NCBI GenBank assembly: GCA_964520195.1
Contig: CAZFNX010000001.1
Location: 34,421 to 98,420 of the forward strand
Direction of reading: 5' to 3'
DNA: 64,000 bases
DNA from: an uncultured Candidatus Saccharibacteria bacterium
Lineage (GTDB): Bacteria; Patescibacteriota; Minisyncoccia; Phycocordibacterales; CAIZLB01
Shown: one piece after another, positions 2,000 through 46,960 of the stretch
Layout: each line of letters opens with the position of its first letter
Position numbering within the stretch: the first letter of the stretch is position 1
Position numbers and translations under genes: made by a program
The notes under the pieces: model-generated
What the model saw: only the letters and a program-made list of their open reading frames with translations
The model's database searches: none
What the model was told of the DNA's origin: nothing

Positions 2000-3034
2000 A
2001 TGGCATTTATAGATGAAATGGAAGTACATATTAAGGCAGGTAAAGGTGGAAACGGTGTTGTTCGCTGGTTGCATGAGTATGCAAAAGAGTTTGGTGGTCC
2101 GTCAGGTGGAGATGGTGGACGAGGAGGGGATGTATATATTCGCGCAATTGCGGATACATTTTACTTACGTAAGTATATGCACCAAAAAGAGTTTTTTGCC
2201 GAGGAGGGTGATTATGGAAGTGGAAATAGTAGTAAAGGAAAACAAGGAGAAGATCTTATTATAGATATTCCTGTTGGATCTATCGTAACTCGTATTCAAG
2301 ATATTAATGTGCATGATAACTTTACTATTTCTAATCCTGTTATAGAACTTAATACTGTAGGGCAAACTGTAAGAATTCTTAAAGGAGGAACTGGTGGATA
2401 CGGTAATGAACATTTTAAAGGATCTTCAAATCAAAAACCTGAAGAGTGGACACCGGGTAAACCTGGAGAAGAGGGGGTATTTCATATTGAGGTACGTATG
2501 ATTGCGGATATTGGTTTGATTGGATTACCGAATGCGGGCAAGTCATCTCTTTTAAATGTATTAACAAAAGCTGATGTAAAAGTTGCTAACTATGAGTTTA
2601 CAACCCTTGAACCAAATCTTGGAAGTATGTATGGTGTCATTCTTGCTGACATCCCAGGTCTTATAGAAGGAGCTTCAGAAGGAAAAGGGTTAGGTCATAC
2701 ATTTTTGCGTCACATACAAAGAACAAAAATTCTTGCACACTGTGTTTCTTTGGAGCAATCGCTTGAACAAATGATGGAGTCGTATACTGTTATTCGTAAC
2801 GAACTCGAACAGTATTCTTTGGGTTTGTCTGAGAAAAAAGAAGTTGTTATTTTAACAAAAACTGATACGTGTATACCTGAGGAAGTCGCTGAAAAAACCG
2901 CTGCTTTTATTAAAAAAATGAAATTAGATGTGGACAGTGTAAAAACAATATCTGTGTATGACCTTGATGCTATAAAGGTTTTGCGGGAATGGTTGACAAT
3001 AATAGTAAAACAGGTGTTTTATTATTTACCATAA
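2000..3034 (+). CDS. obg: GTPase Obg/CgtA
   Basis: N-terminal glycine-rich Obg fold (AGKGGNGVV...GGPSGGDGGRGGDV). G1 motif GLIGLPNAGKSSLLN, plus DIPGLIEGA. Confidence 0.9.
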   Translation: MAFIDEMEVHIKAGKGGNGVVRWLHEYAKEFGGPSGGDGGRGGDVYIRAIADTFYLRKYMHQKEFFAEEGDYGSGNSSKGKQGEDLIIDIPVGSIVTRIQDINVHDNFTISNPVIELNTVGQTVRILKGGTGGYGNEHFKGSSNQKPEEWTPGKPGEEGVFHIEVRMIADIGLIGLPNAGKSSLLNVLTKADVKVANYEFTTLEPNLGSMYGVILADIPGLIEGASEGKGLGHTFLRHIQRTKILAHCVSLEQSLEQMMESYTVIRNELEQYSLGLSEKKEVVILTKTDTCIPEEVAEKTAAFIKKMKLDVDSVKTISVYDLDAIKVLREWLTIIVKQVFYYLP

Positions 3035-3053
3035 ATATGCTACATATATATGC

Positions 3054-4535
3054 ATGAGTAATTCTTCGTATATACCTGTTATAGGGCTTGAAATCCATGC
3101 TGAACTTAATACTAAAAGTAAGATGTTTTGTAGTTGTGCAAACGCTCCTCTTGAACGTAATCCAAACATTCACATCTGTCCTATTTGTATGGCTCATCCA
3201 GGAACACTGCCTACATTGAACAAGACAGCTATAGAGCATGTTCTTAAAGTAGGTGTTGCTCTTGGTGCAGAGATTGCTGATTTTACGGAATGGGATAGAA
3301 AGAACTATTTTTATCCAGATATTCCAAAAGGATATCAGATTAGTCAGTATGCGTATCCACTTGTACAAAAAGGATCTTTGACTGTGAAAAATGAAAAAGG
3401 TGAAGATGTACAAGTTGGTATTACACGTATTCATCTCGAGGAAGATACGGCCCGTTCAAGTCACGATAAAGGTGATTTTAGTTTGGTTGATTACAATCGT
3501 GCAGGTGTACCACTTATGGAGTTGGTAACCAATGCATTAGATTTTTCTATACGAGATGCAAAGACTGCAGGTAACTTTGGAAGAGAGTTGCAGTTGCTTC
3601 TACAGACACTTGGAGTATCTGAAGCAAACATGGAGTTAGGGCAGATGCGTGTTGAAGTAAATATTTCTATACATAAAGAAGGTGAACCGCTTGGAACAAA
3701 AGTTGAGATTAAAAACCTAAACTCATTTCGTGCAGCTGAACGATCTATTGCCTACGAGATAGAACGACAGGCGAAGCTTCTTGATGCAGGAGAAAAAGTT
3801 GTGCAGGAAACTCGGGGATTTGAAGATGCTACAGGAAAAACATTTTCACAAAGAAAAAAAGAAAATGCAAACGACTATAGATATTTCCCAGATCCTGATC
3901 TACCAAAGTTATATATCTCACAAGTTCCAGAATGGTCTATGGATGCACTACGAGGGAGTTTACCAAAGCTTCCTTGGGTTCGCCGAGCCGAGTACTTGGC
4001 TGATGGATTGAAGGCTGAAGATGCAGAAATGTTTATCTCTGATGCATTTTATGGTGATTTCTATGAGGCGGTTTTGAAAACTATTACAAAACCAGAAGTA
4101 AAGAAGTTGGCTGTAAACTATATTGCTACAGATATTGCAGGTCTTGTGAAAAAAGAAGCAGAGCGTGCGCAAACGCTTGATACGTATGTACATCTTGAAC
4201 ATTTTGTTGATATTATACACATGATTGAGGCAGATGAACTTTCATCTCGTGGAGCAAAAGATTTGATTGCATTGCTATGGAAAGCAGATGAGACAACTCG
4301 AGCAAAAACTGCTAAAAGTATTGCTGAAGAAAAGGGGATGATTCAGAAAAATGATCCAGAAGTCCTAAAGACTATGATTCAAGGCGTGATTGATGCTAAT
4401 CCAGAACAGGTAGCAGGATTTAAGTCTGGAAAAGAACCTCTTCTTATGTATCTTGTGGGACAAGTTATGAAGGTTGGAAAAGGAGCTGTAAATCCTGCAA
4501 AAGCACAAGAGATGCTTCGGGAAATGCTTCGATAG
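3054..4535 (+). CDS. gatB: Asp/Glu-tRNA(Asn/Gln) amidotransferase subunit B
   Basis: GatB signature N-terminus IGLEIHAELNTKSKMFCSC and a C-terminal GatB/YqeY domain. 493 aa. Confidence 0.9.
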   Translation: MSNSSYIPVIGLEIHAELNTKSKMFCSCANAPLERNPNIHICPICMAHPGTLPTLNKTAIEHVLKVGVALGAEIADFTEWDRKNYFYPDIPKGYQISQYAYPLVQKGSLTVKNEKGEDVQVGITRIHLEEDTARSSHDKGDFSLVDYNRAGVPLMELVTNALDFSIRDAKTAGNFGRELQLLLQTLGVSEANMELGQMRVEVNISIHKEGEPLGTKVEIKNLNSFRAAERSIAYEIERQAKLLDAGEKVVQETRGFEDATGKTFSQRKKENANDYRYFPDPDLPKLYISQVPEWSMDALRGSLPKLPWVRRAEYLADGLKAEDAEMFISDAFYGDFYEAVLKTITKPEVKKLAVNYIATDIAGLVKKEAERAQTLDTYVHLEHFVDIIHMIEADELSSRGAKDLIALLWKADETTRAKTAKSIAEEKGMIQKNDPEVLKTMIQGVIDANPEQVAGFKSGKEPLLMYLVGQVMKVGKGAVNPAKAQEMLREMLR

Positions 4536-4589: not shown

Positions 4590-5495
4590 ATGGAATCTAG
4601 TTCTACATCACCTGCTTCGCAATCTAAAAAAATTACATCCTTTGGCGTGTTATTGATTGTCTTGCTTATGGTAGCCGATATAGCTTGGAATCAGTATCAA
4701 TCATTTACGTATAGAAAAACTATTGAGACATTACAGTCCGATCATGATGCAAATGTTCGTGAGTTGGCAGAGTTGAAGGCGAGTACAACACAATCAAGTG
4801 CACTTTTGAGTGATTTGTATACTACATTGTCTAGAGTTATTGATGAAGAAAAGGCTAAAAATAAAACACTAGAAGAAAAACTTGGTTCACTTGATAAGTT
4901 AGCTAAAGCAGATCCACAACTGCTAAAAAAATACTCCAAGATCTATTTTCTTAATGAAAATTATGCACCACTGCGACTTGTAACTATTCCTACTGAATAT
5001 ACATACAATCAAAAGACAACATATGAAATACATGCTGATGTACTGTATTACTTACAATCGTTACTTACTGATGCGCGAAATGATGGTATGAATTTGCTTA
5101 TTATCTCTGCGTTTCGGTCATTTGCAACACAAGCAACAGTTAAGAATATAAATGTTGTAAAGTTTGGTACAAAAACTGCAAATCAATTTTCTGCCGAACA
5201 AGGTTTTTCTGAACATCAACTCGGAACAACTGTTGATTTCACAACATCTGCAACTAAGGACAATTTTTCAAAATTTGATGGAACACAAGAATATCAATGG
5301 CTAAAAAATAATGCATACTTATACGGTTTCGTATTATCCTATCCAAAAGGTAACAGTTATTATGCATACGAACCATGGCACTGGCGTTTTGTAGGTGTGG
5401 AGTTGGCGAAACGTATTCATGATGAAGGAAAATATTTTTATGATTATGATCAGCGAGTGTTAGATGAGTATGTGACTAAGATTTTTGATAGATAA
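4590..5495 (+). CDS. D-alanyl-D-alanine carboxypeptidase-like peptidase (M15/VanY family), membrane anchored
   Basis: N-terminal transmembrane helix and a coiled-coil linker. The C-terminal region carries VanY-like motifs (SAFRSFATQ...EHQLGTTVDF...EPWHWRF). Confidence 0.7.
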   Translation: MESSSTSPASQSKKITSFGVLLIVLLMVADIAWNQYQSFTYRKTIETLQSDHDANVRELAELKASTTQSSALLSDLYTTLSRVIDEEKAKNKTLEEKLGSLDKLAKADPQLLKKYSKIYFLNENYAPLRLVTIPTEYTYNQKTTYEIHADVLYYLQSLLTDARNDGMNLLIISAFRSFATQATVKNINVVKFGTKTANQFSAEQGFSEHQLGTTVDFTTSATKDNFSKFDGTQEYQWLKNNAYLYGFVLSYPKGNSYYAYEPWHWRFVGVELAKRIHDEGKYFYDYDQRVLDEYVTKIFDR

Positions 5496-7066: not shown

Positions 7067-7152
7067 TCTTTGTTTAAGAATCATTTTAAGAAAAATTTAT
7101 AAGACTTCATCTTTTCTTGTAAAAAACTTTACCATTCATCAGGTAAAGTTTT

Positions 7153-7551
7153 TTGATGATTAAAAAATTTTTAGAGTGGGTACATAGTAAAATATATATT
7201 GATGAAAAACCAAGAGGTAAAATCATTCATATGTGTGAGGTGTATTGGTGTGCATTAGGTGAAAATATAGGAGATGAAGAAAATGGAAAAGGAGATGCAT
7301 TTACAAGACCTGTTTTGATTATTAAAAAATTTAATAACAATATATTTTGGGGTATACCCATGAGTACAAAACTTAAAGATAATAAATATTACATTAGAGT
7401 CATATTGAAAAATACCCCTCAATCTGTGATGATATCTCAACTGAGGGTTTTGGATGTAAAAAGGTTAGAACAATATATTGGCTATATATCAAGAAATGAT
7501 TTCCATAAAGTAAGATCTAGTTTGATTGATGTGTTATCGGACAATATTTAA
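7153..7551 (+). CDS. MazF/PemK (EndoA)-family endoribonuclease toxin-like protein, solitary
   Basis: GENIGDEENGK...RPVLIIKKFNNN...GIPMSTK and a C-terminal SVMISQLRVLDVKRLEQYIG align with EndoA/MazF (GSEQGGVRPVLVIQND...SVILLEQIRTIDKQRL). An 18-aa N-terminal extension is present. No antitoxin ORF is adjacent. Confidence 0.6.
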   Translation: MMIKKFLEWVHSKIYIDEKPRGKIIHMCEVYWCALGENIGDEENGKGDAFTRPVLIIKKFNNNIFWGIPMSTKLKDNKYYIRVILKNTPQSVMISQLRVLDVKRLEQYIGYISRNDFHKVRSSLIDVLSDNI

Positions 7552-7600
7552 ACCCCTGCTTTGTAAGGCAGGGGCAGGTGGGATAACCCATTTGTGATTA
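7552..7600 (+). terminator. Rho-independent terminator hairpin (CCCCTGC-TTTGTAA-GGCAGGGG)
   Basis: GC-rich inverted repeat immediately after the stop codon of the MazF-like gene. Confidence 0.5.
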
Positions 7601-7646
7601 AAGTATATCAAATGAAAAAGCTGTGTCAATATGCTATACTCACATC

Positions 7647-8666
7647 ATGAAAACAACTCCTACAACTCCAAATATAGCTCTCACAGGCGATCGTCCAACA
7701 GGCAGACTTCATCTTGGTCATTATGTCGGATCTATACAAAACCGTATTGCATTACAAAAGTCTGTTGATAAGGCGTATTACATGATTGCAGATATTCAGG
7801 CCTTAACAGATAATGCAAGTAATCCCTCAAAGGTAAGTGAACATGTGATAGAGGTTATTCTCGATAATATGGCGTGCGGAGTCGATCCTAAAAAAACAAC
7901 ATACTTTATACAATCACAGATTCCTGAGATTGCTGAGATGACAGTATTGTTTTTAAATATGGTAACGCTCGCACGATTGAAACGAAATCCGACTGTAAAA
8001 TCAGAAATGAAGCAAAAAGGTTTTGGAGAAGATGTGCCTGCTGGATTTTTATCATATCCAGTAAGTCAGGCTGCTGATATACTTTTTGCTCGAGCAACAA
8101 CTGTACCTGTTGGAGAAGATCAGCTTCCAGTGATAGAGCAAACAAATGAGCTTGTGAGAAAATTTAACAGTATTTACGGTCAATTCTTCAATGAAGTAAA
8201 ACCTCTACTTTCAGATGCTCCACGGCTTATAGGTACTGATGGACAAGCAAAAGCAAGTAAGTCTTTAGGTAATGCAATATATCTTTCTGATTCGGATGAG
8301 ATGATTGCAAAAAAAGTTATGGGTATGTACACAGATCCAAAACATATTCGAGTGGAAGATCCAGGAGAGGTGAAAGGAAATGTTGTGTTTACGTATCTTG
8401 ATATTTTTGATGAAAATAAAACAGAAGTTGCTGAGCTTAAAAAACAATATAAAAAAGGGGGACTTGGTGATGTTGTTGTAAAAAAGAGACTCATTAAAGT
8501 TTTACAAGACCTTATAGGTCCTATTCGAACACGTCGAGCTGAGCTCGCAAAAGATACAGATGCAGTTATGAAGATTGTTGAAGCAGGAACAAAGAAAGTT
8601 CAAGCAGAAGCCAAAGCGTACATGAAAGAAATGAAAAAGCATATGGGTATAGGGTATTTTGGGTAG
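7647..8666 (+). CDS. trpS: tryptophanyl-tRNA synthetase (class I)
   Basis: TGDRPTGRLHLGHYVGS is the HIGH-type motif and KASKSLGN is the KMSKS motif. The track ORF opens with GTG at 7623; the first ATG is at 7647. Confidence 0.9.
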   Translation: MKTTPTTPNIALTGDRPTGRLHLGHYVGSIQNRIALQKSVDKAYYMIADIQALTDNASNPSKVSEHVIEVILDNMACGVDPKKTTYFIQSQIPEIAEMTVLFLNMVTLARLKRNPTVKSEMKQKGFGEDVPAGFLSYPVSQAADILFARATTVPVGEDQLPVIEQTNELVRKFNSIYGQFFNEVKPLLSDAPRLIGTDGQAKASKSLGNAIYLSDSDEMIAKKVMGMYTDPKHIRVEDPGEVKGNVVFTYLDIFDENKTEVAELKKQYKKGGLGDVVVKKRLIKVLQDLIGPIRTRRAELAKDTDAVMKIVEAGTKKVQAEAKAYMKEMKKHMGIGYFG

Positions 8667-29560: not shown

Positions 29561-31123
29561 ATGCATAACGATAAACAAAAGATTATAAAAAATAAGACTC
29601 TTCCGAGGTCGATTAGATGTGTTGTGCGTATGTATCCCTCAAACCAAGTAAACAGATTGTATTATGGAGGGTTACCGCACCTTGGAAATGCTTTGTGGGG
29701 ATCTTGGAATTCTCTAGATATACAAAAGGCTTCAGAAGCATATGAAGACTATAGTCTTTCCACAAACCTTCTCATAAAAGGTTGTAAGGTGCCTACAGGG
29801 GATAAAGTTCGACTTGGAGGTGGAAGTCCTGCTCGATTTAAACCTTTCAACCAATCTCTCATTCAAATCCAGGAAACTTTGGACAATAGAATTCTTTCTG
29901 ATTATCCGCTAGCAGCAGGAGACAACACGGCAAAAGAATCTATTATCAAATATTTTAACGAGAGATATTCAAAAGAAATCCAGAAGAATAATATTATATT
30001 TGCTCACTCAAGTACGCAGGCATTTGCACTGGTTATGGAGGCAATACTCGATTATGGAGACGTGGTACTCATGACAGGTCCTAGTTATGGACTATTTGCA
30101 TTTATACCTGAAAGAGTTGGAGGAAAAGTTCGGTTACTTGAATTGACCTCTCAAGATGGCTGGAAGGTTAATCCTAAAAAACTAAAGAAGCTTATAGTAG
30201 AAATTAACGAAGAGCTAAAATCAGATTACGATAAAAATCGAGGTAAATATATTTTTAGACGTTCTGACACTTCTCCAAAAGTGGCAGCGTTTGTGAATAT
30301 AAATCCTCACAATCCAACAGGAATCGTATATGGAGAAAAAGATAAATCATTATTGATGGAAATATCAAGTATCTGTAAAGATGCTGGTGTATTTGTTATT
30401 GATGATCTTGCATATAGTGGACTGGAATATGATAGAAAAAATGTAGCTCTACCTATTTGTAGTTTGAAAGGACAGTTTGATAATACAATCACTTTGTACA
30501 CTCTTTCAAAAAGTTATGGGCTTGCTGGACTTCGGGCCGGAATGGTTATTTCTAATGAAATCGTTAGTTCACTAATCAGAGATAGAATTTTTCAGAGCTT
30601 TGACTCGTTATCTATTTTACAGTCGTCAGCAATAAGTGCTGCGTTTTTACCTGGAAAGAAAGCAGAGAGGGAAAGAGAAGAGTATTTTACATATACAACA
30701 AAAGAATATAACAATAGATATGTTTTTGTGAAATCTATAGTAGAGGGTGTGCAAAATCTTGATAAATCAGAGAAAACTCTATTGGATAAAATCATAAAAG
30801 AAAATAATCTAAAAATAGATTTTCATACGCATGTAAACGGAATTAAGGATATTAAAATCATTCTCAAGCCTGAATCAGGATTCTTCTTATTGCTGGATTT
30901 AACAGGACTTATTGGTAAAAGATATAAGAAATTTAAAATTATTGATGAAAGAACTCTACTTCAATTTCTATATACATCAGAAAACGTGAAGACGCTTACC
31001 GGTAAGGCTTTCTGCTGGTTGGACGAAAGCAAACTTGTGATTCGAGTAACTACAGCTTTTGATTACGAAGGTTTGTTGAAAAACTTCTTAAGATTTAAGT
31101 CATCTATCGAGTCACTCCAATGA
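29561..31123 (+). CDS. PLP-dependent aminotransferase class I/II with ~100-aa N-terminal extension
   Basis: NINPHNPTG (NPxNPTG) and the PLP-lysine motif LSKSYGLAGLRAG. Confidence 0.8.
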   Translation: MHNDKQKIIKNKTLPRSIRCVVRMYPSNQVNRLYYGGLPHLGNALWGSWNSLDIQKASEAYEDYSLSTNLLIKGCKVPTGDKVRLGGGSPARFKPFNQSLIQIQETLDNRILSDYPLAAGDNTAKESIIKYFNERYSKEIQKNNIIFAHSSTQAFALVMEAILDYGDVVLMTGPSYGLFAFIPERVGGKVRLLELTSQDGWKVNPKKLKKLIVEINEELKSDYDKNRGKYIFRRSDTSPKVAAFVNINPHNPTGIVYGEKDKSLLMEISSICKDAGVFVIDDLAYSGLEYDRKNVALPICSLKGQFDNTITLYTLSKSYGLAGLRAGMVISNEIVSSLIRDRIFQSFDSLSILQSSAISAAFLPGKKAEREREEYFTYTTKEYNNRYVFVKSIVEGVQNLDKSEKTLLDKIIKENNLKIDFHTHVNGIKDIKIILKPESGFFLLLDLTGLIGKRYKKFKIIDERTLLQFLYTSENVKTLTGKAFCWLDESKLVIRVTTAFDYEGLLKNFLRFKSSIESLQ

Positions 31124-46166: not shown

Positions 46167-46390
46167 GTGTTTATATTAATATATGTAATTTATGTTTTCT
46201 TTGAAAAATCTTTAACACTACCGTGGTATAGATATGAACATGAGTATATACCATATAATAAAAAAAATCAACAGCGACAGTCGGGAAGTATCGTTCAATA
46301 TACGTCAAGCTAGGGTCTTTATAATACTTCTGACAACTATATTGTTGATACAGGTTAGTATAGGGGTTATGGTCTGGGTTTATGTTGTAT

Positions 46391-46960
46391 AAAAAAGACC
46401 TCTTCCCCCCGACTAACTACGTCTCCTAAGAGTGTGTTTCGGGGCGGAAGAGGAAGTGCGGTTTGGTAGTGGATGAGGTTGTAAGCCTACCTGGCTACCG
46501 TTTTGCCGTGAAGCCAAGGACCTTTCGATCCGGTCTCGGCAAACACATTTATCGACGCCAGCCTAGACGAGCGCGATAAACAAACCATTGTGCACTCTTT
46601 AACTTTATCATTGTGAGTTTGTTTGTCAACCATATGAGCATGCTCGGAGACGGTGTGGTATAGGAAGGTATGGAAGGGATATGATTCTCTATAATATAAA
46701 TAAAAAAACCAAAGCTCTACTGAGGGCTTCGGGGTGCTTTTTGTTGTGTTGGAATAAATGAAGAGGATCTCCACTTGCCTCATGGAATAAATCTGGATTG
46801 TTGTCCAGACCTTGCTTCACAAGGCAAGTGGATAGACCGGCGTGTCCGCCACCTCCTCTCTACCGCATGCAGTTGCACACGTGTTTATACTCTTGGGTCG
46901 ACCGAACCATCAATAAGGGTCGACTTACGGTAATATTAGCATTTCAGGCTTTTTTATGTC
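46391..46960 (-). ncRNA. candidate structured non-coding RNA(s) of unknown class (GC-rich, hairpin-dense; minus-strand terminator at ~46391-46450)
   Basis: A 1.2-kb gap with no credible ORF. Its GC-rich segments contrast with the genome background. It contains a GNRA-capped hairpin (GGAUC-GAAA-GGUCC), long-range complementary arms (CCACTTGCC...GGCAAGTGG) and a minus-strand CCUCUUCCGCCCC...GGGGGGAAGAGG + U6 terminator. The boundaries are guesses. Confidence 0.25.

Follow-up and report, generated by a model that had tools for sequence, protein, structure and literature searches.

We analysed a stretch of 64,000 nucleotides (nt) from contig CAZFNX010000001.1 of an uncultured Candidatus Saccharibacteria bacterium (hereafter the window; G+C 35.8%), in which a gene for a PemK/MazF-fold protein, called here the toxin gene, lies between lysS and trpS. 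An earlier reading of the same letters, the original prediction, had described this gene as a solitary toxin with no space beside it for an antitoxin. That description is true for a protein antitoxin only: the spacer between the toxin gene and trpS encodes a conserved small RNA (sRNA) on the opposite strand, convergent with the toxin gene, and the locus is probably a module made of a toxin and a cis-encoded sRNA that serves as its RNA antitoxin. The features of the locus are given below with positions counted from the first letter of the window; hp1 and hp2 denote the two hairpins of the sRNA.

7156-7551, plus strand: toxin gene for a PemK/MazF-fold endoribonuclease-like protein, with its ATG at 7156 and its stop codon at 7549-7551 (evidence: open reading frame (ORF), Pfam, structure, homologues)
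7629-7602, minus strand: sRNA promoter, TTGACA-16-TGATATACT, with the -35 box TTGACA at 7629-7624 and the extended -10 box TGA-TATACT at 7610-7602
7595 to 7543, minus strand: predicted sRNA of ~52 nt, the 3' end being an estimate (evidence: covariance model, fold, conservation)
7579-7590, minus strand: hp2, a small clamp hairpin, (U)GGG-UUAU-CCC(A) (evidence: fold, covariation)
7552-7575, minus strand: hp1, a GC-rich 3' hairpin, GCCCCUGC-loop-GCAGGGGU (evidence: fold, covariation)
7121-7154, plus strand: hairpin AAAAAACTTTACC / GGTAAAGTTTTTT with a T-run, the toxin ATG following directly (evidence: sequence reading)
7144-7149, plus strand: -10-like box TAAAGT, 6 nt before the toxin ATG and within the 3' arm of the preceding hairpin; a putative promoter element of the toxin gene
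7066, plus strand: end of the lysS stop codon (Pfam tRNA-synt_2, E=1e-80)
7647, plus strand: ATG of trpS (Pfam tRNA-synt_1b, E=2e-55)
7612-7649, plus strand: promoter-like site of trpS, with the -10 box TATACT at 7635-7640, 6 nt before the ATG at 7647 (evidence: promoter scan); context only, outside the module

The toxin gene, its protein and the search for a protein antitoxin

The toxin ORF can be read from a TTG at 7153, giving 132 amino acids (aa), or from the ATG at 7156, giving 131 aa, and the ATG is the start used by the gene callers in public assemblies and in all homologues. Both the ORF and the gaps that separate it from lysS (86 nt) and from trpS (95 nt) are as the original prediction had placed them. 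The position of the gene is conserved: the order lysS-toxin-trpS is retained in the closest homologues, at 76-79% protein identity.

The MazF/PemK identity first proposed for the protein was borne out by profile and structure comparisons. Residues 29-127 match the Pfam family PemK_toxin (PF02452) at E=1e-13 over profile positions 4-108 of 109, with 51.8 bits against a cut-off of 23.1, and residues 4-124 match phrog_9567 of PHROGs, a phage family labelled 'MazF-like growth inhibitor' (E=9e-21). An AlphaFold model of the toxin (29 homologues as input; pLDDT 84) shows an N-terminal helix followed by a MazF barrel. Its top Foldseek matches are solved MazF structures (4mzm, 4mdx, 1ne8, 5cr2 and others; E ~3e-6, TM 0.65-0.77), and the best-matching ones come from Staphylococcus aureus, Bacillus subtilis, Bacillus cereus, Mycobacterium tuberculosis and Escherichia coli. 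As modelled, the toxin has the SH3-like barrel fold of MazF and Kid. All homologues carry the NCBI label 'type II toxin-antitoxin system PemK/MazF family toxin', and by its sequence the protein is a member of the PemK/MazF superfamily, predicted to be an endoribonuclease and to be toxic.

Conserved motifs of the toxin include RP, which contains R51, and SQLRxLDxKRL. In a profile-profile alignment made with hhalign, R51 falls on R25 of B. subtilis MazF, and S70/T71, within the conserved motif IPMSTK, probably correspond to Thr48 of that protein, at a place where the alignment is gapped. Arg25 and Thr48 are the catalytic residues of B. subtilis MazF. With regard to the MazF catalytic residues on which the original prediction had made its assignment depend, the arginine is in place and invariant in the 29 homologues, while an equivalent of Thr48 is probable. 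The N-terminal extension that it had described is likewise present, as a helix of residues 2-17 in which F5, W8 and K12 are invariant across the 29 homologues, and it is a trait of the whole clade. Nothing observed favours the suggestion of the original prediction that this extension acts as an intramolecular inhibitor.

We listed ORFs down to 20 aa on both strands around the toxin gene. No MazE/PemI-type gene lies upstream of it or overlaps it, in agreement with the original prediction: the 86-nt upstream gap holds no plus-strand ORF of 20 aa or more, and the 95-nt gap holds no suitable ORF. The accompanying statement that no small ORF overlaps the gene on either strand proved too broad, as several minus-strand ORFs of 20-61 aa do overlap it; they are not consistently retained in relatives. 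One such antisense ORF of 37-54 aa, at 7227-7361 on the minus strand (+66 to +230 of the toxin gene), faces the most conserved toxin codons; of 10 close loci, 8 keep its frame open, whereas L015 and L024 do not. The ORF is probably a by-product of the conserved sense sequence.

Wider searches gave a similar picture. Among the small proteins of the 64-kb window, Pfam detected no MazE-, AbrB- or ribbon-helix-helix (RHH)-type protein except MraZ, which is housekeeping and part of a cell-division cluster. Of 66 related loci whose upstream sequence was long enough to survey, only one, L055, shows an antitoxin-like ORF in front of the toxin gene. A protein antitoxin was rejected on the strength of the ORF listing, the Pfam search of the small proteins of the window and this upstream survey; the search for trans-acting antitoxins covered 64 kb of the genome. 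In L055, a Phd/YefM-like ORF of 95 aa (2724-3011) lies upstream of the toxin gene and overlaps it, and the downstream sRNA is also present; the toxin of this locus may thus have two partners, one a protein and the other an RNA.

A conserved sRNA gene opposite the end of the toxin gene

The minus strand of the toxin-trpS spacer carries the best promoter match in the region, with 11 of 12 positions matched in addition to the TG, and 6 nt separate its -10 box from the predicted start at A7595. From there the predicted sRNA reads 5'-ACAAAU-(U)GGGUUAUCCC(A)-CCU-GCCCCUGC CUUACAAA GCAGGGGU-UUAAAUAUU-3', which corresponds to a single-stranded 5' ACAAAU, hp2, an ACCU linker, hp1 and the tail UUAAAUAUU. 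The tail is complementary to the toxin stop codon and to the last codons before it. hp1 adjoins that stop codon and is the presumed terminator stem of the sRNA. The whole folds with a minimum free energy (MFE) of -20.3 kcal/mol (z = -2.8 against shuffles). The original prediction had read the hairpin behind the toxin gene as the gene's own GC-rich terminator, but on the plus strand no T-run follows the hairpin at 7552-7575, and a terminator scan returned, by its criteria, 0 terminator-like sites on either strand; the hairpin is the 3' hairpin of the convergent sRNA. The sRNA promoter stands back to back with the promoter-like site of trpS and overlaps it.

Promoter-like hexamers are no rarity in this AT-rich region, where 4 were found against 5.7 expected; since the hexamer count alone is not significant, conservation is what counts. 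We compared the 130 nt after the stop codon in 80 homologues, with identity down to 33%, taken from one-genome-per-species contigs of Patescibacteria, Campylobacterota and a few Bdellovibrionales and alphaproteobacterial metagenome-assembled genomes (MAGs). These are the loci reachable by two peptide patterns, a sample biased towards conserved toxins. Nearly all homologues, those of 35-45% identity from other phyla included, have the minus-strand sequence TTGACA-16/17-(TGn)TAnnnT-6 nt-ACAAAU-hairpin-hairpin behind their stop codon. Read on the plus strand, the near-universal layout is the stop codon, a variable GC-rich hairpin, 2-4 nt, a small hairpin, ATTTGT, 6 nt, the reversed -10 box, 16-17 nt and TGTCAA. 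A strict automatic test asked for a promoter score of 9 or higher together with a start of A[CT]AA type located 6 nt downstream of the -10 box. It was passed by 61 loci, and most of the others pass by eye or through the covariance model described below. Among these 61, the -35 box is exactly TTGACA in 44 and the -10 box is TG-extended in 38, while the first six transcribed bases are ACAAAU in 42, with an A at positions 3-4 in every case. In 56 of the 61 the distance from the stop codon to the predicted sRNA start is 42-60 nt, and 58 fold as a single-stranded leader of 5-7 nt followed by exactly two hairpins (mean z = -3.8 against shuffles).

A covariance model was built from 29 sequences, with a quick calibration that leaves its E-values rough. 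It gave 38 matches in 84 sources, all of them on the strand opposite the toxin gene and, except for two weak extra ones in L064, all directly after a toxin gene or a frameshifted copy of one. The matches outside the training set are L038, L026, L034, L025, L029, L017 and a second copy in L028. Within the 64 kb of the window, which is itself in the training set, the model has a single match (7546-7595, minus strand, 56.6 bits). In the correct register of the covariance alignment, 91.9% of the cells are paired and compensatory double changes occur in 10 of 11 pairs; registers slid along the alignment are only 21-57% paired, and covariation as strong as that observed arose in 0 of 500 shuffles. 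Both hairpins contribute to this signal: hp1 shows compensatory changes in all of its 8 pairs with 93.8% of the cells paired (alignment A3), and over the 61 loci the same columns of hp2 hold GGG/CCC, UCC/GGA, GCC/GGC and others.

The strand of the RNA could also be settled from these alignments. It is the minus strand, because G-U pairs exceed A-C pairs (32 vs 6), because the minus-strand RNA is the more stable in 45 loci vs 20 (p=1e-4), and because the C(UUCG)G tetraloop that distant relatives have in hp2 occurs on the minus strand only. In the window and its two closest relatives it is the plus-strand version of the hairpin that is more stable, so that in this subgroup the plus-strand hairpin may also serve the toxin transcript. 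In one other subgroup, the final ~35 nt of the toxin coding sequence contain a classical sRNA terminator with hairpin and U-run.

Two further identities of the element were considered and rejected. A known RNA family was dropped after Rfam gave no match for the locus in E-value mode or for the window and 8 related loci in gathering mode. A small protein gene was dropped as well: the ORFs that start at the AUG within ACAAAUGGG vary from locus to locus (3-24 codons), many loci lack this AUG (they have ACAAUU or ACAAAC), and the hairpins vary by compensatory pairs, without a codon-like pattern.

Other scans yielded few additional loci. When metagenome contigs were searched with the 16-mer ACAAATGGGTTATCCC, nearly all of the 125 matches were chance matches in coding regions, the real ones being L128 and L183; the 16-mer is too unspecific for an unbiased test from the RNA side. 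A pattern-based scan of viral contigs found no relatives. The search with ACAAATGGGTTATCCC also met two unrelated repeat families that contain the 16-mer, a tandem array of 31-nt units (L106, 4150-4400) and a dispersed palindromic element, GGGGCTACAAATGGGTTATCCCTACGGGAT; the loci concerned are L106, L119, L135, L142, L153, L162 and L177. In three loci of Gracilibacteria type (L063, L080 and L087), the toxin ORF read by table 11 seems to extend across the sRNA region (149 aa); UGA is probably a sense codon in these lineages.

Copies, decay and the Campylobacter jejuni homologue

The conserved sRNA gene accompanies the toxin in varied contexts, among them lysS/trpS, efp/recA, plasmids and prophages. 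Several copies can occur per genome, as in one MAG with four loci (L026, L030, L034 and L035), and a distant genome has two tandem copies between efp and recA. In two cases the toxin is broken by a frameshift and the sRNA is intact (the upstream copy in L028, 2401-2852, and L038, 3001-3439), with sRNA scores of 62 and 60 bits that are on a par with the best, a pattern that fits earlier decay of the toxin and retention of the antidote. Orphan sRNA genes with their own TTGAC promoters and no toxin gene behind them are found in L064 (2729-2873) and in L128. These orphan copies adjoin complete toxin-sRNA modules. L064 also has a second toxin gene at 3581-4012, and L128 has two sRNA genes ~135 nt apart. 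Intact toxins without an sRNA are rare.

A tblastn search of plasmids and phages found homologues with 34-43% identity on plasmids of Campylobacter, Helicobacter and Nitratiruptor and in Campylobacter CJIE4 prophages; the carriers include conjugative plasmids, small mobilisable plasmids and prophages. Taken together, the behaviour of the family fits a toxin-antitoxin module rather than a housekeeping enzyme. In three Campylobacterota loci (L085, L045 and L046), the toxin gene stands in an apparent type I restriction-modification operon, with an HsdS-like start after it as read by eye. L085 is without an sRNA.

The closest relative of the window locus is the pair pVir0047/CJpv3 on the plasmid pVir of Campylobacter jejuni 81-176. 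pVir0047 (30634-31038) has 38% identity to the window toxin (tblastn, E=7e-16) and keeps the N-terminal F..W...KK helix as well as the RPVL and S/T-K motifs; no antitoxin is annotated beside it. It has been reported that a 77-nt, Northern-positive sRNA, CJpv3, is encoded on the minus strand of pVir from 31119 to 31043, between pVir0047 and pVir0048 and in convergent orientation (Dugar et al. 2013, PMC3656092, Table S12). In the dRNA-seq data of the same study, no start on the plasmid exceeds the one at 31119 on the minus strand in step height (16164); it is flagged as antisense to pVir0047, and the toxin mRNA start at 30608 on the plus strand has a step height of 28 (PMC3656092, Table S5). The sRNA and toxin start sites of pVir thus differ ~580-fold, the sRNA being in large excess.

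CJpv3 starts ~80 nt past the toxin stop codon, from the promoter TTGATT-17-TGATATAAT, and consists of an unpaired leader of 6 nt followed by hairpins, of which the terminal GC hairpin reaches to within 5 nt of the stop codon; in the CJIE4 prophage copy the terminal hairpin overlaps the stop codon. The likeness to the window locus lies in a homologous toxin, a convergent sRNA directly after the stop codon, a 6-nt single-stranded leader and a GC-rich hairpin that abuts the stop codon. The two RNAs differ in that CJpv3 has 77 nt, three hairpins and a GUUUGA leader, whereas the window RNA has ~52 nt, two hairpins and ACAAAU, and the covariance model does not link them. They differ also on the toxin side, where the Campylobacter mRNA has a 26-nt leader with a Shine-Dalgarno (SD) sequence and the mRNA of the window toxin is probably leaderless.

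Two papers (PMC7826846, PMC10470494) attribute to Shen et al. 2016 a type I pair on pVir, with CjrA as the antisense RNA antitoxin and CjpT as the protein toxin; the citing papers do not name the genes. No other toxin domain than that of pVir0047 is recognisable on pVir, and the data of Dugar et al. include an antisense RNA behind this gene. By the logic of the locus it is fairly likely that CjpT is pVir0047. Should pVir0047/CJpv3 prove to be CjpT/CjrA, one experimental study has already established the kind, and the window locus would be a new and distant member of it.

These observations bear on a reading in which the toxin is truly solitary, the sequence downstream of it being a bidirectional terminator next to an unrelated promoter and the restraint coming in trans or from the N-terminal helix. 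The chance abundance of promoter-like hexamers in AT-rich DNA, the conservation of the helix and an antitoxin search confined to 64 kb of the genome are all compatible with it, but promoter, spacing, leader and both hairpins form one conserved unit in no fewer than 61 loci, which span different phyla and genomic contexts, and the minus strand holds no gene that the promoter could serve. Moreover, the homologous C. jejuni element is the most strongly started transcript on pVir, and the sRNA genes persist beside dead toxins and as orphans. A solitary toxin in this sense is, in our view, highly improbable. The original prediction had also suggested neutralisation in trans, which becomes unnecessary with a conserved convergent sRNA gene in the downstream spacer.

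Another suggestion of the original prediction was a domesticated housekeeping endoribonuclease; such an enzyme would be non-toxic, and the antisense sRNA would merely tune its expression, with no addiction or abortive infection involved. The family speaks against this on several counts. Its contexts vary by lineage, there are paralogues as well as tandem and frameshifted copies, and the gene travels on conjugative and small mobilisable plasmids and in prophages and sits inside restriction-modification loci, although its position between lysS and trpS is stable within the lineage and its efp and recA neighbours elsewhere are also housekeeping genes. Small Patescibacteria genomes might be expected to lose selfish modules, which favours domestication. 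Against it, the sRNA promoter is far stronger than that of the toxin, and the two start sites on pVir differ ~580-fold, which is the usual signature of an antitoxin in excess. Together with the orphan sRNAs, these copies make domestication unlikely for the family, and for the locus as a whole we regard it as improbable.

Mode of action and relation to known toxin-antitoxin types

The hairpin at 7121-7154, directly upstream of the toxin ATG, is probably the terminator of lysS. The -10-like box in its 3' arm has counterparts in 26 close relatives, where a TAnnnT box 6 nt before the toxin ATG is invariant and mostly preceded by TGn (alignment A4). Most genes of the window are without an SD sequence, and in many of them a TGnTAnnnT box ends 5-8 nt upstream of the start codon (for example those at 4590, 5594, 7647, 8725, 23467 (minus strand), 35338, 43124 (minus strand) and 60230), which suggests that leaderless mRNAs are the rule in the source organism. 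With leaderless mRNAs apparently habitual here, a leaderless toxin mRNA would not be special; it would mean, however, that the antitoxin RNA cannot act by masking an SD sequence. Three CTTTA boxes ~11 nt apart (TCTTTA-N5-TTCTTTA-N5-ACTTTA) are found where a -35 box would be expected, at 7106-7133 in the window and in the 26 relatives of A4; they could be an operator or an UP-like element.

We consider it moderately probable that the sRNA is an antitoxin that acts mainly through the toxin mRNA. On this account, a weak promoter would give a leaderless or nearly leaderless mRNA for the MazF/PemK-fold toxin, and the strong near-consensus promoter behind the toxin gene would give a structured RNA of ~52 nt directed back at it. 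Because the two genes are convergent and no terminator-like signal lies between them on the plus strand, toxin transcripts should cross the sRNA gene and so carry a 3' end that is fully complementary to the sRNA. Abundant sRNA would then pair with this 3' end and lead to decay of the mRNA, convergent transcription may add interference, and toxin would be made only once the supply of sRNA falls. The always-convergent geometry points to such a cis action on the toxin transcript. We infer the toxicity of the protein, its neutralisation by the sRNA and the mode of neutralisation alike. A further possibility is that the plus-strand AUUUGU after the small hairpin helps to terminate the toxin transcript, which would also explain why AUUUGU is conserved.

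Several points weigh against an antitoxin that works through the mRNA. The 3' ends of both the sRNA and the toxin mRNA are predicted, and transcripts are shown only for the C. jejuni homologue; on pVir, another sRNA, CJpv2, which lies beside a 41-aa ORF, could be CjrA instead of CJpv3. The -10-like box of the window toxin has neither a TG extension nor a -35 box. In the window subgroup the sRNA overlaps the coding sequence by only a few nt, so that pairing between the two RNAs depends on read-through of the toxin transcript across the hairpins. Pairing of the sRNA with the 5' end of the toxin mRNA was considered and dropped, as no complementarity was found there (mean z = 0 over 51 loci), and translational control would therefore be indirect. 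The known type I toxins are nearly all small hydrophobic peptides (PMC6562991). Finally, a strictly conserved ACAAAU and a clamp hairpin exceed what a cis-antisense RNA needs, which hints at recognition by a protein.

Recognition by the toxin itself is the core of a type III-like or hybrid alternative, in which the sRNA would neutralise the protein and the clamp hairpin would offer the 5'-triphosphate ACAAAU to the MazF groove as a pseudo-substrate. B. subtilis MazF cuts U^ACAU; for an enzyme that cuts 5' of an ACA-type site, an RNA starting at that A would present no scissile bond and could act as a competitive inhibitor. The high conservation of the 5' hexamer, with its invariant A at positions 3-4, agrees with this proposal, as does the spacing of exactly 6 nt between the -10 box and the hexamer, by which the 5' end of the sRNA is fixed. 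In addition, hp2 often carries a UUCG tetraloop, which makes a rigid clamp and a poor kissing loop, and the sRNA does not pair with the 5' end of the toxin mRNA. A purely protein-binding RNA would nonetheless have no need of a convergent, abutting position that is kept across phyla, and ACAAA is not depleted in toxin genes, although this is a weak test of cleavage specificity. Neither the missing complementarity to the 5' end of the mRNA nor the ACAAA count separates the two readings.

Type III systems proper (ToxIN, CptIN, TenpIN, AbiQ/antiQ) also combine an RNA antitoxin with an endoribonuclease toxin of the Kid/MazF-like superfamily, type III toxins having a Kid/MazF-like fold, and the window toxin has a weak NCBIfam match to the type III toxin CptIN (E=0.017). 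This match reaches 15 bits vs a cut-off of 90, however, and the fold matches MazF and not ToxN or CptN. Known type III antitoxins are tandem repeats located upstream in the same operon and processed by the toxin, whereas the window RNA is single-copy and lies downstream on the opposite strand under its own promoter; the sequence upstream of the toxin gene holds nothing more than one weak A/T-rich repeat of 12 nt (score 41) and thus no repeat array. A type III system as such was rejected on these grounds, namely the missing tandem repeats, the low CptIN score and the structural matches to MazF.

We judge neutralisation of the protein by the sRNA to be unlikely, though less so than domestication. 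Slightly less likely again is its most specific form, in which a cross-phylum, helix-bearing MazF clade would be neutralised by a new class of RNA antitoxin, an uncleavable pppACAAAU pseudo-substrate that acts on the protein instead of, or besides, the mRNA. If true, this would be a hybrid of type I gene geometry and type III-like chemistry, and the N-terminal helix would be explained as an RNA-docking element.

For the favoured reading of an antitoxin acting on the toxin mRNA, the nearest parallels are type I systems. The gene architecture of type I is present, with a conserved convergent promoter whose sRNA meets or overlaps the toxin gene at its 3' end, and the mRNA-pairing mechanism is predicted. 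In txpA/RatA, bsrG/SR4 and yonT/SR6 of B. subtilis, the toxin and RNA-antitoxin genes likewise converge with a 3' overlap. It has been described for these systems that the transcripts pair at their 3' ends, that RNase III cleaves the duplex, that the antitoxin RNA is usually in excess and that a terminator loop can act as the recognition loop (PMC6562991). They differ from the window locus in that their toxins are small hydrophobic membrane peptides, in contrast to a 131-aa MazF-fold RNase, and the RNAs are unrelated; a 5' hexamer and a clamp hairpin conserved across phyla set the window family further apart. A type I precedent with a soluble, RNA-cleaving protein toxin is SymE/SymR of E. coli (PMC8167048). 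SymR, however, overlaps the 5' end and the SD sequence of symE, whereas the window sRNA lies at the 3' end of the toxin gene. SymE, moreover, has an AbrB/MazE-like fold and not the MazF fold.

With the type II systems MazEF, PemIK and EndoA-EndoAI the locus shares the toxin fold and the catalytic arginine. It is set apart from them by the absence of an upstream mazE/pemI-type gene, and the window clade has in addition a longer loop (GENIGDEENGKG) and the conserved N-terminal helix. An adjacent protein antitoxin, the defining part of a type II MazEF system, was looked for and not found, so that the locus does not belong to this type.

In a literature search we found no description of a MazF-family toxin with an sRNA conserved across phyla, and the T1TAdb paper does not mention the sRNA family. 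What appears to be undescribed is the pairing of toxin and sRNA across a whole cross-phylum MazF clade, the covarying two-hairpin RNA with a fixed 5' hexamer, and the multiple copies in Patescibacteria. MazF and PemK are textbook type II toxins, yet this clade, spread over Patescibacteria and Campylobacterota and over plasmids and prophages of Campylobacter and Helicobacter, is without MazE and carries a conserved sRNA gene instead. Such an sRNA is invisible to toxin-antitoxin finders that rely on ORFs; many 'orphan' MazF toxins annotated as protein-antitoxin systems may therefore be mislabelled, and RNA partners for them are worth seeking. The sRNA is a compact and well-covarying RNA family suited to curation, the module offers a cheap two-part system for asking how an RNA restrains a MazF-type RNase, and Patescibacteria, despite their reduced genomes, are seen to keep several toxin-sRNA modules.

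Elsewhere in the window, an ORF-free region at 46380-46960 adjoins the gene for L27 (45894-46166, minus strand) and has 44-53% G+C in a genome of 36% G+C. It contains neither a tRNA nor a tmRNA and gave no Rfam match even at E=0.1. Each strand folds much more stably than its shuffles (z = -4.7 and -4.8), and the region is a candidate for a large structured non-coding RNA of unknown kind.

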